From Phycisphaerales bacterium (GTDB lineage Bacteria; Planctomycetota; Phycisphaerae; UBA1845), in assembly GCA_020353195.1 (NCBI GenBank), contig CP070691.1, positions 3,655,665-3,712,960 on the forward strand: a DNA stretch of 57,296 nt, written 5' to 3'. Position 1 is the first letter of the stretch, and each line of letters opens with the position of its first letter. Positions 24,404-29,003 of the stretch are shown here, in pieces. The translations under genes and the position numbers were made by a program. Under the pieces are notes generated by a model. That model saw nothing but the letters and a program-made list of their open reading frames with translations, was not told where the DNA came from and made no database searches.

Positions 24404-25327
24404 TCAATCGGCGACGTCGGGATGCAACAGCGACAGCAGCTTCTCCGCCAGAAGCACCAGCCGAGGCGACGGGATCATTGCGTAGTCTTCGGTGAGGACG
24501 TGAACACGCCCGTTGCGGACCGCCGGTATCTGCCGTAGCGGATGCCATTGCTCAGCCAATTGGACGTAACCGCCGGCGGGCCGGCCGCCGGGCGAGACTT
24601 CGATGATCACCTCGGGCCTGCGGACTACGATCTCCTCAATGCTCACCTGCGGATACGCGACATCCAGATCACCGAAGACGTTCTCTCCGCCCGCCAGCTC
24701 GATCAACTCGTGCAGGTACGAGCCCTGGCCGACCGTGCCTATGTTGGCCAGCCGGTCCGGACCTCGCATCGTCAGCAGCACCTTCACCGCGGGCCGGCCC
24801 GCCGCCCGACCCTGCACCCGGGCCAGGCGCTCACGAACGCGCCGACACAGCGCGTCAGCCTGCTCGACGCGGTCGAACATGGCGCCCAATCGAGTGATCG
24901 TCTCATACACGTCGGACAGTCTGTTCGTGGGGTCGTAAAAGACGGCGATGCCGCGGTCCCGGCAGAGCTTCTCGAGTTTCTCCTGCCGCCCTCGAAGGAT
25001 GACCAGGTCCGGACCGAGCGTGACGATCGCCTCGAGATTCGGATCCCGCTGACCCCCGATCCGCGGCACGTGGGCTAGCTGCGGGGGATAAACCGTGTAC
25101 CGGCTCACCCCGACCAGCCGACTCCCGACACCCAGCTCCCAGAGGATCTCCACCGAGTTCGGCGCCAAGGCCACTATCCGCCCGGGTATGGCGCCGGTGC
25201 CGTCTGTCGCGAGGTTTTCGGACGTGCCGGAGTCACGGGCGCAACCGGCCAACATCATCAGTGTCAGGCCCGCCTGCTGCGCGGTCCGCCAACCCGGCGT
25301 CCGCCGACTTTTTGTGGCGCATCGCAC
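24404..25327 (-). CDS. BtuF-like helical-backbone periplasmic binding lipoprotein
   Basis: Lipobox LAGC, RIVALAPNSVEIL, PNLEAIV, LAGGENVF, SIEEIV, PAVRNGRV, PSPR. Start position is uncertain. Confidence 0.9.
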   Translation of the reverse strand: MRCATKSRRTPGWRTAQQAGLTLMMLAGCARDSGTSENLATDGTGAIPGRIVALAPNSVEILWELGVGSRLVGVSRYTVYPPQLAHVPRIGGQRDPNLEAIVTLGPDLVILRGRQEKLEKLCRDRGIAVFYDPTNRLSDVYETITRLGAMFDRVEQADALCRRVRERLARVQGRAAGRPAVKVLLTMRGPDRLANIGTVGQGSYLHELIELAGGENVFGDLDVAYPQVSIEEIVVRRPEVIIEVSPGGRPAGGYVQLAEQWHPLRQIPAVRNGRVHVLTEDYAMIPSPRLVLLAEKLLSLLHPDVAD

Positions 25328-25454: not shown

Positions 25455-25618
25455 AGCGCCCTCGAGGCAACCGCGGGACCGGCGCTCCTGCCTGTCGAAG
25501 ACGCGCCGGAAGGCCCGTTCTGCAGTTCGGTGATGGCCGCTCGTGGTGGATACACGCGAGGTGAGCCTTCTCCCCCTTTCGGCGGGTCAAGCCGCTCTCG
25601 TGCCCCCGGATGACCGGC
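25455..25618 (-). other. Dispersed intergenic element, copy B (homologous to 9740-9907)
   Basis: Reverse complement of core 25563-25598 = agagcggcttgacccgccgaaagggggagaaggctc. Confidence 0.65.
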
Positions 25619-25884
25619 TGGCAAGGCGATCCCCAAGACGAATAATCCCTACCACACGCTGACAGGATTCTGCCGGCGGCATCCTGCTTGCGCGCATACC
25701 AGACGGACGATCTACACCCCGTTCCGAATCGCACGGACTCTCGCATGTCGCAATCCTGCATGAGGTTAGGTCAATCGGCCGCGGCGGGCAGTTCAGCCGT
25801 GCTGCCACTGCCCAGCCCGCTTCGGAGACATCGACGCGCGTCCCGGCCGGTTGCGCTCGACCCGAAAATAGTTCGATTCGGCGC

Positions 25885-25913
25885 TTGCATGTCTTTCAAC
25901 GTCCGGTTACACT
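25885..25913 (+). promoter_or_regulatory. Sigma70-type promoter
   Basis: TTGCAT (25885-25890), 17-nt spacer, TACACT (25908-25913). Confidence 0.7.
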
Positions 25914-25919
25914 AAACGC

Positions 25920-26160
25920 AGTTGAGGAGTGAGCGGAGGAAGAGGAGAGGGCCGCAGATCAGCGGCGGTGAGTGGAGCGGAGTAAGGAAGGGAACAGAGG
26001 ATCTCCGGCGAAGTCTCGCCGACCTTAACCGCGATCCACAAGAGAGCAAAAAAACCGAGAGTTGTCTCTTCCGGTGTTCTCGCCGGTTGAGTTTCACGAA
26101 TCTCTCTCTCTCCCTCCCAGGCTTGGGCTGTTCCAATAGGGCAGCCCCAGCCATTTTTTA
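25920..26160 (+). ncRNA. Candidate small RNA (GGA-rich 5' half, CU-rich 3' half)
   Basis: Lies between a sigma70 promoter and an intrinsic terminator with no credible ORF inside. It has 9 GGA in 25926-26001 and internal hairpins. Confidence 0.55.
26120..26159 (+). terminator. Rho-independent terminator
   Basis: Stem ggcttgggctgttcc-aata-gggcagccccagcc followed by atttttt. Confidence 0.75.
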
Positions 26161-26191
26161 CGCCCATTACAAACGCCCATCACGATGCAAA

Positions 26192-26371
26192 CCGAACCGC
26201 GACCGTAAGGGAGCGGCCAGCATTCAGAGCGGTCCGCCACAGGCGGATCAGGGAGCGGCCTTCAAAGCTGACCGTAAGCTAGCGCATGAGAGCAGAATTC
26301 TCCACCCAAGGTGGATCAGGGAACGGTCTGCAGCGTCAACGAGGTCCCGCTTCCTTACGAGCGCGGCTCGG
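26192..26371. repeat. Inverted pair of REP-like copies enclosing two 26-bp direct repeats
   Basis: ccgaaccgcgaccgtaagggagcgg (26192-26216) and ccgcttccttacgagcgcggctcgg (26347-26371). Inside are tccgccacaggcggatcagggagcgg (26233-26258) and tccacccaaggtggatcagggaacgg (26301-26326). Confidence 0.8.
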
Positions 26372-26429
26372 CCTGTGCAGCGCGCAACGCGCATCTGATC
26401 GGAACCGGTCGCCGGTTCCCCCCGACGCC

Positions 26430-29003
26430 TTACGCCATGCTCAGAAAAGCCACCGCACCGAGCGCTGCGAGGATGGTCAGCACGGCCAGCCAGATCGCGA
26501 TATCCCAGCGCCCGCGCCGGCCGGCAACTACGAGGCCAATCACGACCACGGGCGCCGCGAGTACCGCGACCACGGGCACTGCCCTGACGCCAGGGGGGTG
26601 GTGTGCCGCGACCGGGCCGGGTCGGCTACGCACGGTCGCCCGGAGTTTACCGGATCCCGTCGTCGAATCATCGATCACGTTCTTCTCGAGCACCCATGTC
26701 TCCTCGGCGCGCTGGACTTCGATGCGGTCCACGTATGTTGCGTGGCGCGCGAACAGCAAAGCCAGCAGGACCAGCACGATGGGAACCAGAAGCCACAACA
26801 ACCTGGCCCGCCGCCACGTCGAGCCGACGAACAGCGACACCATCAGCAGTGCGCCCGACATCACCATCGCGGCGATGACCCCCCACTTCTCCTCCGGCGT
26901 GCTCGCCCCGTAGATGCTCAGGAATGTGAGCGACGCCCCGATGCCGATCAGCGCACAGGCGATCAGAAACGGTCTGGCCGTCTCGCGCCAGAACCCTCGG
27001 CGCCGCCGCTGCGTCGTCTTCGACAGAACCGGAATCAGGAGCGAGACACTCGCGATGGAAGCCACGATGGCCGCGGTCTGGTCGTCATCGATCCTTACAA
27101 CGCCCAGCACGGGCATCAGGAACGTCCCCACCGCCGCGCCGAACAGGCAGAATGCGACCACGCTCCAGAACGCCCGCGTCACGCCCCAGCGCAGCGGGGG
27201 AAGCGGCTCCGTCGACGCCGGCTTCGCGTGACGGCTGCCCGGTTCCACCGGAATACCGAACGGAACCGTCCCCGGTTCGGCTTGGGCGGGCGGCGCAGCG
27301 GTGTCGGCCTGCACCGGCGAGGCCAGCGGCGGCGAATCGGCGTGAGGGCGGCGCCGCCAGGTGTGCTTTACCGATGCATCCTGGCTGGCTGGCGGGCCAG
27401 GCGTCAAGGCGTACAGCGGTGGCCAGAACCACGACCCCGCCTGCACGGCCAGCGAGACCGCTGCCGCGACACCACCGGCTACCCACGCCATATCAGCGTC
27501 GGCCCAATCGGCGAACATGGCCACGATGAACGCAACCACGCCCGCCGTGAAGGCGTGGCCGACACCCAGTTCCCCAGATGCGCCCGACCGGATCCGTTGA
27601 CGCCAATCGATAAACAGCACCACCGCAGCCAGCCCCATGACAAGTGGCCCCGGTTCCATATGGGTGTCGTCCGCGATGGCTCCGCCGATCGCCATCGGCA
27701 CGGCGCAGCATAAGGCCAGGATCAGGCGCTGGACCCATTCCGGCTCGGCCTGGCCCCCGATCCAGCGGATCATCCGGTGCCCCAGCGCCAACCCCAATGA
27801 CAACCCGAAGGTCAGGAATCCGGGAGCCAACCCATCGTCGTCCCGGCCAAGGCAGCCGAAGAGGATGCCCACCCCGATCGAAATGGCCGCCATGACGACC
27901 CATGCAAGGATGAACCCTCTCGTCGTCGCCGGCGGGGCGGCGACTGGCATCGAAGGCCCTCCGCCCTGGGGCGCCGCTTTCTTGCCCGCCCTGCGGTCGA
28001 GGGCCTGCATCCTGCGGGCGATTTTGTGTTCGATGCGACGAGCCCGCCGTCCCAGGCGCGGCGGCAACTCGGCGCCCCAGGCTCCCGCGGCTTCAGGCGG
28101 CGGCGGAGGCGGCGGATTCGGCGACGGGACGGGAGAATCGGGCAAGTCACGCGCCACCCGGGCGGCCGCCTGCGACAGGCTTGTCGGGTTGAAGCCGGCC
28201 AGCGAGTTCCGCACGTCGTCGACGTCGAAGATGTCGTTCACCATCTCGTCGACGGTCTGGTATCGGTCGTTCGGGTCCTTGGCGAGCGCCTTGCGAATCA
28301 CCGCCGCGAACGGCGCGGGCAAATCGTCGAGCTCCGGCTGGGCCGTCAGATGCTTCATCAGCACCTCGCCCATGCTGCCCCCTTCGAACGGCACCTTGCC
28401 CAGCAGCATCTCGTACAGGATGACACCCAGCGCGTAGATGTCGATGCCCCGCGAATAGTCCCCGCTGCCGACTTCCGGGGCCATGTAGTGCACCGTGCCC
28501 ACGCTGGCCGTCTGAGCGCTGTGACGCGAGACCGAAATGAACTTGCTCAACCCGTAATCGCCGATCTTCACGTACCCGTCGTCATAGAAAACGTTGCCCG
28601 GCTTGAGATCGCGATGAACGATGCCCCGATCGTGCAGATAGCTCAGCCCCTTGGCCAGCTCCCTCAGGAAGAACGCTGCCTTCTGGGCGCCGAGCCCGCC
28701 GGGTTGGGCGACCAGAAGATCGCGGAGCGACGGCCCGCTGACATATTCCATCAGTATGAAATAGTCGTCGTCGGCGTTCTTCTTGACGTCGAAGATCGTG
28801 ACCAGGTGCGGGCTCTTGAGGTTGATGCAGTGGGAGACGCCTCGCAGCTCGACCTGCGGGTTCTCGCGGAGGTACTTCAGCGCCACCTCGCGGCCGCCGT
28901 CGCTGATCGCGTAGTAGACCTCGCCGAACCCGCCCCGGCCCACACCGCGGTGCACGGTGTAGCCCTCGAGCGGTCGATCACCATGTTTGAACGTGAATGC
29001 CAC
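26430..29003 (-). CDS. Hanks-type Ser/Thr protein kinase with multi-TM C-terminal region
   Basis: GRGGFGEVY, VALK, HRDLKPGN, DYG, GTVHYMAPE; poly-Pro linker followed by about a dozen hydrophobic segments. Confidence 0.95.
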   Translation of the reverse strand: MAFTFKHGDRPLEGYTVHRGVGRGGFGEVYYAISDGGREVALKYLRENPQVELRGVSHCINLKSPHLVTIFDVKKNADDDYFILMEYVSGPSLRDLLVAQPGGLGAQKAAFFLRELAKGLSYLHDRGIVHRDLKPGNVFYDDGYVKIGDYGLSKFISVSRHSAQTASVGTVHYMAPEVGSGDYSRGIDIYALGVILYEMLLGKVPFEGGSMGEVLMKHLTAQPELDDLPAPFAAVIRKALAKDPNDRYQTVDEMVNDIFDVDDVRNSLAGFNPTSLSQAAARVARDLPDSPVPSPNPPPPPPPEAAGAWGAELPPRLGRRARRIEHKIARRMQALDRRAGKKAAPQGGGPSMPVAAPPATTRGFILAWVVMAAISIGVGILFGCLGRDDDGLAPGFLTFGLSLGLALGHRMIRWIGGQAEPEWVQRLILALCCAVPMAIGGAIADDTHMEPGPLVMGLAAVVLFIDWRQRIRSGASGELGVGHAFTAGVVAFIVAMFADWADADMAWVAGGVAAAVSLAVQAGSWFWPPLYALTPGPPASQDASVKHTWRRRPHADSPPLASPVQADTAAPPAQAEPGTVPFGIPVEPGSRHAKPASTEPLPPLRWGVTRAFWSVVAFCLFGAAVGTFLMPVLGVVRIDDDQTAAIVASIASVSLLIPVLSKTTQRRRRGFWRETARPFLIACALIGIGASLTFLSIYGASTPEEKWGVIAAMVMSGALLMVSLFVGSTWRRARLLWLLVPIVLVLLALLFARHATYVDRIEVQRAEETWVLEKNVIDDSTTGSGKLRATVRSRPGPVAAHHPPGVRAVPVVAVLAAPVVVIGLVVAGRRGRWDIAIWLAVLTILAALGAVAFLSMA

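Follow-up and report, generated by a model that had tools for sequence, protein, structure and literature searches.

Small RNAs with Anti-Shine-Dalgarno-Like Motifs

The present analysis deals with a gene for a small RNA (sRNA) at positions 25885-26159 (+) of a 57,296-nt stretch of the genome of a Phycisphaerales bacterium (contig CP070691.1 of assembly GCA_020353195.1), which is referred to here, as a whole, as the window. The RNA contains a C/U-rich (CU) tract that resembles the anti-Shine-Dalgarno sequence of the ribosome, a property that invites comparison with several described systems. In the Firmicutes, for example, LhrC1-5 of Listeria and RsaE/RoxS are multicopy or tandem sRNAs, in which unpaired C/U-rich motifs (short UCCC or CCCC motifs in several loops) pair with Shine-Dalgarno (SD) regions, with neither an adjoining partner gene nor a cis-masking leader. 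The RNAs described here are likewise multicopy or tandem and have an unpaired C/U-rich motif with putative SD-pairing capacity, but they differ in the adjoining protein gene, the predicted masking leader, and the lack of a match in Rfam. In Vibrio, Qrr1-5 are sigma54-dependent, Hfq-dependent multicopy sRNAs with an invariant core and dispersed genes. The units of the Phycisphaerae share with these a promoter of the sigma54 type, multiple copies that are almost identical, and a seed that is both long and invariant, although they stand in tandem behind a protein gene, and the sequences are unrelated. The CsrB/CsrC/RsmX/Y/Z RNAs, in turn, resemble the window RNA in being purine-rich, with repeated GGA motifs, and in forming an orphan unit with its own promoter and terminator, but in the window RNA the GGA motifs are mostly predicted to be paired, the CU tract is the most conserved part, the csrA gene is paired with fliW, and there is no match to that family.

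The closest analogue would appear to be the module formed by CcaF1 (DUF1127) and the CcsR1-4 “cuckoo” RNAs of Rhodobacter sphaeroides and other Alphaproteobacteria. In the published account of the Rhodobacter system (PMC8034643), the CcsR RNAs carry CCUCCUCCC anti-SD loops and derive from the 3' untranslated region of ccaF1, and the CcaF1 protein binds these sRNAs and affects their maturation. The features that this account describes and that recur in the Phycisphaerae are the tandem homologous sRNAs with a C/U-rich, anti-SD-like motif in the 3' region of a small-protein gene, the extra copies with their own promoters, and an alternative sigma factor that drives the system. The two systems are nevertheless from different phyla, and neither the window nor the tandem arrays of the Phycisphaerae show any sequence or Rfam relation to the CcsR RNAs, which fall under ar14 and relatives in Rfam. 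The CCUCCUCCC motif of the CcsR RNAs lies in the loops of two hairpins, whereas the motif described here is a single-stranded tract of 17-20 nt, CUCUCUCUCUCCCUCCC, between two hairpins. The partner protein is a predicted beta-barrel with a core of ~65 aa and without DUF1127 or any other Pfam match, and its promoter is of the sigma54 type, rather than RpoHI/HII-dependent. Tandem units behind the small-protein gene are the architecture seen in 57 of 117 loci; the gene is lacking from the window copy, which is of the orphan type.

Very few sRNAs are annotated in the group formed by the Planctomycetes, Verrucomicrobia, and Chlamydiae (PVC), for which a table in a 2022 review (PMC9029176) gives eight distinct sRNA families. 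A full-text literature search returned no work on sRNAs of the Phycisphaerae or Planctomycetes among the matches listed, which is not proof that none exists. The locus described here represents a concrete and widely conserved entry point, as it brings together an sRNA family whose anti-SD-like tract is invariant over 20 nt, a dedicated small protein outside the known families, two promoter classes, and a paralogue that is predicted to be naturally self-masked.

A Family of CU-Tract RNAs in the Phycisphaerae

The window RNA is a paralogue within an sRNA family of the Phycisphaerae that is absent from Rfam. The family unit consists, in order, of a 5' hairpin, an A/U-rich linker, the invariant single-stranded tract, and a closing hairpin, whose foot is an invariant CCAGG(C)/(G)CCUGG. 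On its 3' side, this hairpin terminates in GCCUGG(G), after which comes a U-run or a further unit. The 5' hairpin is variable in sequence, with a hairpin occupying this position in most units, and the linker is commonly (C)AUAGA. In the window, the CUCUCUC..CCCUCCCAGG tract and the hairpin that follows it stand behind an A/U-rich linker and a 5' hairpin, forming a complete canonical unit (26071-26159) that is preceded by a purine-rich extension of ~150 nt (Table 1). Other families of the order have counterparts of the last ~60 nt, at 83-100% identity and often arranged in tandem.

The exact 18-mer core of CUCUCUCUCUCCCUCCCAGG was recovered from 117 public loci, nearly all of them in metagenome-assembled genomes of Phycisphaerae or Planctomycetota, with taxon labels that are almost always Phycisphaerae, Sedimentisphaerales, Phycisphaerales, or Planctomycetota. 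These loci contain 141 distinct units, of which 121 have the closing hairpin; the 20 that lack it were set aside as chance matches or matches to elements resembling repetitive extragenic palindromes (REP), judging by their appearance. The CU tract is invariant across 36 aligned units (alignment A2), in which the closing hairpin has 13 consensus pairs, eight of them with compensatory changes, and the 5' hairpin of the window type shows such changes in three of its four consensus pairs (alignment A3). Over the 121 units, the linker has A in 76% at position -6, and C in no more than 2% at positions -1 and -3.

With one mismatch at most, the tract was found in 27 of a sample of 301 genomes of the class, compared with none for a reversed control pattern. 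One variant with a single mismatch, CTCCCTCTCCCTCCCAGG (genomes G048, G101, G120, G148, G152, and G155), was rejected as a member of the family, given that it belongs to a different, REP-like inverted repeat, and is followed by GAGAGGGC.GGGGTGAGGG in all four loci read. The count of 27 thus exceeds the true extent of the family by approximately six genomes.

The covariance models of Rfam 15 gave no match at the gathering score over the whole window, and only two weak, unrelated matches at E-values of up to 10 over positions 25600-26500; four arrays of the family were also without a match. For the original prediction, made from the sequence of the window, a match to a known family such as 6S RNA would have been adverse. 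No known family was recovered, and 6S RNA was rejected, as there was no match to its covariance model, and the RNA has an intrinsic terminator and a multibranched predicted fold.

Table 1. Features of the sRNA locus and its flanking genes, with positions given in the window.
Feature	Position	Strand	Basis
-35-like hexamer TTGCAT	25885-25890	+	Read in the window sequence
-10-like hexamer TACACT, spacer of 17 nt	25908-25913	+	Read in the window sequence
Purine-rich 5' leader AGUUGAGGAGUGAGCGGAGGAAGAGGAGAGGG	25920-25951	+	25935-25949 predicted to pair with the CU tract
Internal purine motif GGAGCGGAGUAAGGAAGGGAACAGAGG, core GGAAGGGA..GAGG conserved in orphan-type RNAs	25974-26002	+	Alignment A3
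Internal hairpin CGGCGAAGUCUCGCCG (genus version GGCGGUGUCUCGCCGCC)	26006-26021	+	Sequence and minimum free energy structure
5' hairpin of the canonical unit, CCGGUGUUCUCGCCGG	26071-26086	+	Consensus scan and alignment A3
A/U-rich linker UUGAGUUUCACGAAU, matching the (C)AUAGA linker of the family	26087-26101	+	Unit frequencies
Invariant CU tract CTCTCTCTCTCCCTCCCAGG (RNA CUCUCUCUCUCCCUCCCAGG), including the anti-SD-like CCUCC	26102-26121	+	Sequence and family alignment
Intrinsic terminator: hairpin 26120-26152, then A and T6 (26154-26159)	26120-26159	+	Sequence and fold
Periplasmic-binding protein gene	24404-25327	-	PF01497, E 3e-31
Ser/Thr kinase gene	26430-29003	-	PF00069, E 2e-49

The Orphan RNA as a Transcription Unit

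The locus is the gene of a non-coding RNA of ~240 nt, equipped with a sigma70-type promoter of its own and an intrinsic terminator. Twenty homologous loci of the orphan type, 191-344 nt in length, were gathered from several families, and in every one of them the element TTGCA(A/T)-N16-18-TAnRnT is found at a fixed distance before the purine-rich start, with -10 hexamers such as TAAACT, TAGACT, TAAATT, and TAAGGT at equal spacing. The closing terminator hairpin and its U-run end the unit in all 20 loci; in the window, this hairpin is formed by 11 pairs with one U.C mismatch, plus an inner CC/GG. A generic consensus scan did not pick up the TTGCAT/TACACT site, and it reported only the small hairpin at 26071-26086, having missed the main terminator because its hairpin is bulged. 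The case for both elements rests, then, on their conservation. The transcription start was placed near 25920, assuming a distance of 7 nt from the -10 hexamer, and it is from this promoter-based position that we infer the leader to be the extreme 5' end of the RNA.

When 40 relatives were compared, positions 25972-26162 were found to be kept at 74-78% identity in all five genomes of the same genus, in each of which the upstream binding-protein gene is syntenic. Beyond the genus, none of the 14 other orphan loci shares the neighboring genes. The original prediction had proposed an orphan, self-contained sRNA transcription unit, and its promoter, body, and terminator are all conserved; the positions that it gave for the promoter, GGA-rich 5' part, CU tract, and terminator agree with the sequence, and the genes on both sides do lie on the opposite strand. 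The comparison across the Phycisphaerae that it had suggested shows conservation, with a covarying hairpin in the 3' module. The promoter is supported by its presence in all 20 homologues, but the description of it as near-consensus goes too far, given that, against the Escherichia coli consensus, TTGCAT agrees with TTGACA at three of six positions, and TACACT with TATAAT at four of six.

The alternative that the region is not an sRNA at all, but either a small protein gene on one of the strands or a relic of a repeat or terminator, is extremely unlikely. There are open reading frames (ORFs) that could be cited in its favor, that is, a TTG ORF at 25922-26398 on the plus strand and, on the minus strand, ATG ORFs with lengths of 80 and 86 aa, but none is conserved on either strand among the 20 homologues, in which frame, length, position, and presence all vary. 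This is in line with the original prediction, which had seen no credible ORF between promoter and terminator. On the plus strand, for example, there is no ORF of at least 40 aa in L014, L109, and L047, and on the minus strand there is none in L025 and L039. The translations of the window ORFs have no Pfam match, and the plus-strand ORF extends into dispersed REP-like repeats. A selfish repeat does not fit either, since there are two loci per genome, in constant contexts.

One aquatic metatranscriptome run, which contained 0.04 of the sampled words, yielded a contig of 235 nt that matches 26093-26158 with one difference, with no cover of the locus elsewhere, and that shows no start, end, or strand. 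The 156 nt upstream of the match are unlike the window and resemble the orphan RNA of relatives, and the contig runs 13 nt past the T-run. This is weakly compatible with the RNA of a relative being abundant.

Predicted Masking of the CU Tract

The predicted fold of the 241-nt RNA has a minimum free energy (MFE) of -101.3 kcal/mol (z = -3.5), and none of 200 shuffled sequences folds as well. In this structure, RNA positions 16-30, in the 5' leader, are paired with positions 183-198, in the CU tract, and the internal hairpin CGGCGAAGUCUCGCCG, which had been recognized in the original prediction, is also formed. The same arrangement is predicted throughout the orphan type, with the tract pairing with the first ~30 nt in the MFE structures of all 20 RNAs. 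The 5'-3' helix is also part of the RNAalifold consensus of 12 orphan RNAs, with nine pairs that are kept in nine to 12 of the sequences. When all the 30-nt windows of a locus are ordered by their pairing with the tract, the 5' window is among the best 1% in each of the 20 loci, and the few windows that perform better include the antisense of the tract itself.

The earlier suggestion that the CUCCCUCC tract pairs back with its own 5' end is thus predicted in every homologue examined and in the consensus. Together with pairing of the tract with SD sites, it had formed the second alternative of the original prediction, after the CsrA sponge, and this second alternative fits the data best, as the tract is the invariant core of the family. 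Downstream of the leader, the motif GGAAGGGA..GAGG forms conserved columns outside all the consensus helices (alignment A3), and the GGA motifs of 25974-26002 have probabilities of being unpaired, P(unpaired), that range from 0.03 to 0.85.

This fold bears directly on the headline of the original prediction, that the RNA is a sponge in which the GGA-rich 5' and middle parts titrate CsrA in the manner of CsrB, RsmY, and RsmZ. The orphan RNA is probably not a CsrA sponge, and we regard such a role as very unlikely. It is true that nine GGA motifs lie within the first 80 nt (RNA positions 7-80, counted from 25920), with three to nine in each orphan homologue, and that the conserved GGAAGGGA..GAGG is apparently unpaired, being outside the consensus helices. 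The 5' part is, however, mostly a purine-rich tract, without specific enrichment in GGA, and the nine motifs have predicted P(unpaired) of 0.87, 0.01, 0.33, 0.02, 0.03, 0.34, 0.34, 0.07, and 0.85, respectively. Only two of the nine reach 0.8, and most are predicted to be paired; four stand at 0.07 or less, owing to their predicted pairing with the CU tract.

The genome does contain a csrA gene, the absence of which would have counted against the sponge. This single gene (PF02599, E 7.5e-25) lies directly after fliW (PF02623, E 6e-37), on the same strand, at G000:C1:2831663-2832450 (L010/L146), where G000 is the genome of the window. In the FliW-CsrA systems of Bacillus, the antagonist of CsrA is a protein. 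As csrA is present in all of 41 relatives, and the RNA in 18 of them, the distributions differ, and their co-occurrence is uninformative. No Csr or Rsm family was matched in Rfam, even at E-values of up to 10, and the strongest conservation is found in the CU tract, which a sponge of this type would not need.

The Small Barrel Protein and Its Operon

In 57 of the 117 loci, a small-protein gene lies directly upstream of the units, on the same strand, at 3-430 nt before the first one. The arrays behind this gene are formed by one to four units, with a period of ~95-110 nt, and many loci of the family consist of a single unit. The protein is encoded in 20 of the 301 genomes of the class, in 12 of which the tract is adjacent by its coordinates. 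Of the eight remaining genomes, six have variant CU units just downstream of the gene (such as CUCUCUCCUCCAGG and CUCUCUCCCUCCCCAGG), while in G081 the locus is split by contig ends, and in G160 the gene is at the edge of a contig. A type III toxin-antitoxin system of the ToxIN kind, in which repeats precede the gene of an endoribonuclease toxin of ~170 aa, was considered and rejected, given that here a barrel protein, with its core of ~65 aa, is encoded upstream of the repeats, and a single unit is all that many loci contain.

A promoter element of the sigma54 type, with the -24/-12 pattern GGCA[CT]-N5-nTGC, is found upstream of the small-protein gene in 45 of 57 distinct loci, compared with three on the opposite strand and none in the 200 nt downstream. 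The protein itself has a conserved core of ~65 aa (alignment A1), and no match in Pfam at E-values of up to 0.1 or in NCBIfam. The predicted model is an SH3-like small beta-barrel (mean predicted local distance difference test score, pLDDT, of 80.5), to which Tudor, KOW, PetP, and NdhS come closest among the solved folds. The best VIA-align match has a Z of 7.7, with a root-mean-square deviation of 1.8 Å over 56 residues, and Foldseek returned nothing from the PDB at an E-value of 0.001 or better, with values of 0.04 or worse. The fold matches must therefore be taken as generic. The matches in the ESM Atlas, to PetP-like and DUF3104 clusters, are all below 0.9, and serve as leads only.

A second CU locus is present in the genome of the window, at G000:C1:1608440-1608990 (L002 1148-1680), where the small barrel protein gene is followed by two units. 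Its sigma54-type element is GGCACAGCTCGTGC; the first unit is canonical, and the second has a shortened tract, CUCUCUCCCCCAGG, and carries the terminator. At L140 (G208:C30:12500-15900), two copies of the small-protein gene are found on one contig, and in the array behind the first copy long GA-rich spacers, GGUAGAGAGG..GGGAGAGAAAC..GGGAGAGAGCUGAGGGAGAGG, stand immediately before the CU-tract units. These spacers are the operon-borne counterpart of the GA leader of the window RNA.

The linkage between gene and units raises the alternative that the family is made up of protein-binding RNAs, in which the SH3-like small protein or, for example, ribosomal protein S1 would recognize the CU tract together with the hairpin foot. 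The units would then store, titrate, or deliver the protein, with the orphan RNA acting as a regulated competitor. This reading is regarded as rather unlikely. It would account for 18-20 nt that do not vary between families, with covarying hairpins on either side, and it accords with the tight linkage to a gene whose product shares a broad fold group with the KOW and Tudor domains. Hfq (PF17209) was not found in any of the five genomes searched, four of which are 94-99% complete, a result that fits this alternative and also makes a private partner protein for base-pairing RNAs plausible. On the other hand, the fold match is generic, and no small protein could be detected in 14 of the 27 genomes in which the tract was matched, although at least six of these 14 carry the REP-like element.

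A Possible Anti-Shine-Dalgarno Mechanism

The 3' end of the 16S rRNA of the organism is GGAUCACCUCCUUUCU, and GGAG, GAGG, or AGGA peaks at positions -14 to -10 before the start codons of its genome, at 0.065, compared with a background of ~0.01. The organism uses SD-led initiation, and a single-stranded, CCUCC-bearing tract between hairpins is the layout of SD-masking sRNAs. The reading preferred here, which is considered to be evenly poised between right and wrong, is that the family is composed of anti-SD-like base-pairing sRNAs, of which the window RNA is a cis-masked member. The CCUCC of the CU tract would be the seed that pairs with purine-rich, SD-type sequences of mRNAs, and the adjacent small protein would be a processing or chaperone partner, as CcaF1 is for CcsR1-4. 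In the window paralogue, the GA/GGA-rich 5' leader would lock the seed in a terminal helix, making the orphan RNA a masked form, which would require opening or cleavage in order to act. If this mechanism is true, the family would represent a second, independent invention of a module of the CcaF1-CcsR type, and a candidate answer to how base-pairing sRNAs are handled in lineages in which Hfq was not found.

A number of observations weigh against this reading. Outside the loci of the family, the genome has no long perfect complement of the tract, only sites of 10-14 nt, and a duplex scan of crude start regions produced many near-equal scores, of -25 to -28 kcal/mol, with no winner. As no target could be named, the anti-SD mechanism is one that we infer. 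Recognition by a protein could explain equally well why 18-20 nt are invariant in different families, and a generic small beta-barrel, as modeled, would indicate no function for the adjacent gene product. The variation in the 5'-3' helix is one-sided, with only A or G opposite U, given that the CU side is constant, and so provides no compensatory proof of the pairing. The transcription start is only assumed to lie 7 nt past the -10 hexamer, and the signal of expression comes from the contig of a single relative, which overruns the T-run and may reflect the carry-over of DNA.

The sigma54-type promoter of the operon presents a further difficulty, as rpoN was not found in the assembly of the window by searches with PF04552, PF04963, TIGR02395, and a regular expression for the RpoN box. 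This absence is attributed to the state of the assembly, which is ~78% complete and has 17,531 N; every listed run of N is 100 nt long, so that what is presented as a single contig is a scaffolded, incomplete assembly. It also encodes five strong AAA+ domains of bacterial enhancer-binding proteins (bEBPs), and rpoN is present in all four of the more complete relatives that were searched.

The leader may also act in trans. In an RNA sponge of this kind, the GA-rich leader and the internal GGAAGGGA would base-pair with CU tracts that are free in the sRNAs of the sigma54 operon and in this way titrate them, in an antagonistic circuit with two promoters. The orphan and operon loci do co-occur in the genome of the window and in G003, G007, and G180, their promoters differ in type (sigma70-like in the former, sigma54-like in the latter), and internal 30-nt windows besides the leader are predicted to pair with the tract at -9.9 to -19.6 kcal/mol in the 20 RNAs. 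The proposal is quite unlikely, however, as the leader is already taken in cis by the tract of the same RNA, which retains a complete canonical unit, and the orphan type is found without a detectable operon in genomes such as G138, G207, and G028.

A broader, and doubtful, extension of these ideas is a module of three parts, in which a sigma54 operon would provide an SH3-like RNA chaperone and tandem anti-SD-mimic sRNAs that damp the translation of SD-led mRNAs, and the sigma70-driven window RNA, with both seed and complement, would serve as a switchable antagonist (sponge) or reserve. If true, this would be an sRNA, anti-sRNA, and chaperone circuit without a described counterpart in the PVC superphylum.

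A GA-repeat region at approximately position 973171 (-) of the genome of the window (G000:C1), ..AGAGAGAGAGCGCGAGGGAGAGAGCGAGAAGCCGAGAGAGAGAGCGG.., contains several stretches that are complementary to the CU tract.

REP-Like Elements near the Locus and in Other Genomes

The interval between the terminator and the stop codon of the kinase gene (26165-26430) is occupied by a dispersed REP-like element, with 55 matches across the genome, often in clusters. The core of this element lies at ~26191-26219, and a second type of copy at ~26347-26390. The CTCCCTCTCCCTCCCAGG variant of the tract belongs, in the loci L142 (G120:C10:4000-5600) and L143-L145, to an inverted-repeat element, …GGGAGAGGGC.GGGGTGAGGG, and in L142 a long tandem repeat with a period of ~22-23 nt (GCCGGAGMCRCATTTCCWYTTS-like) is found upstream of it.

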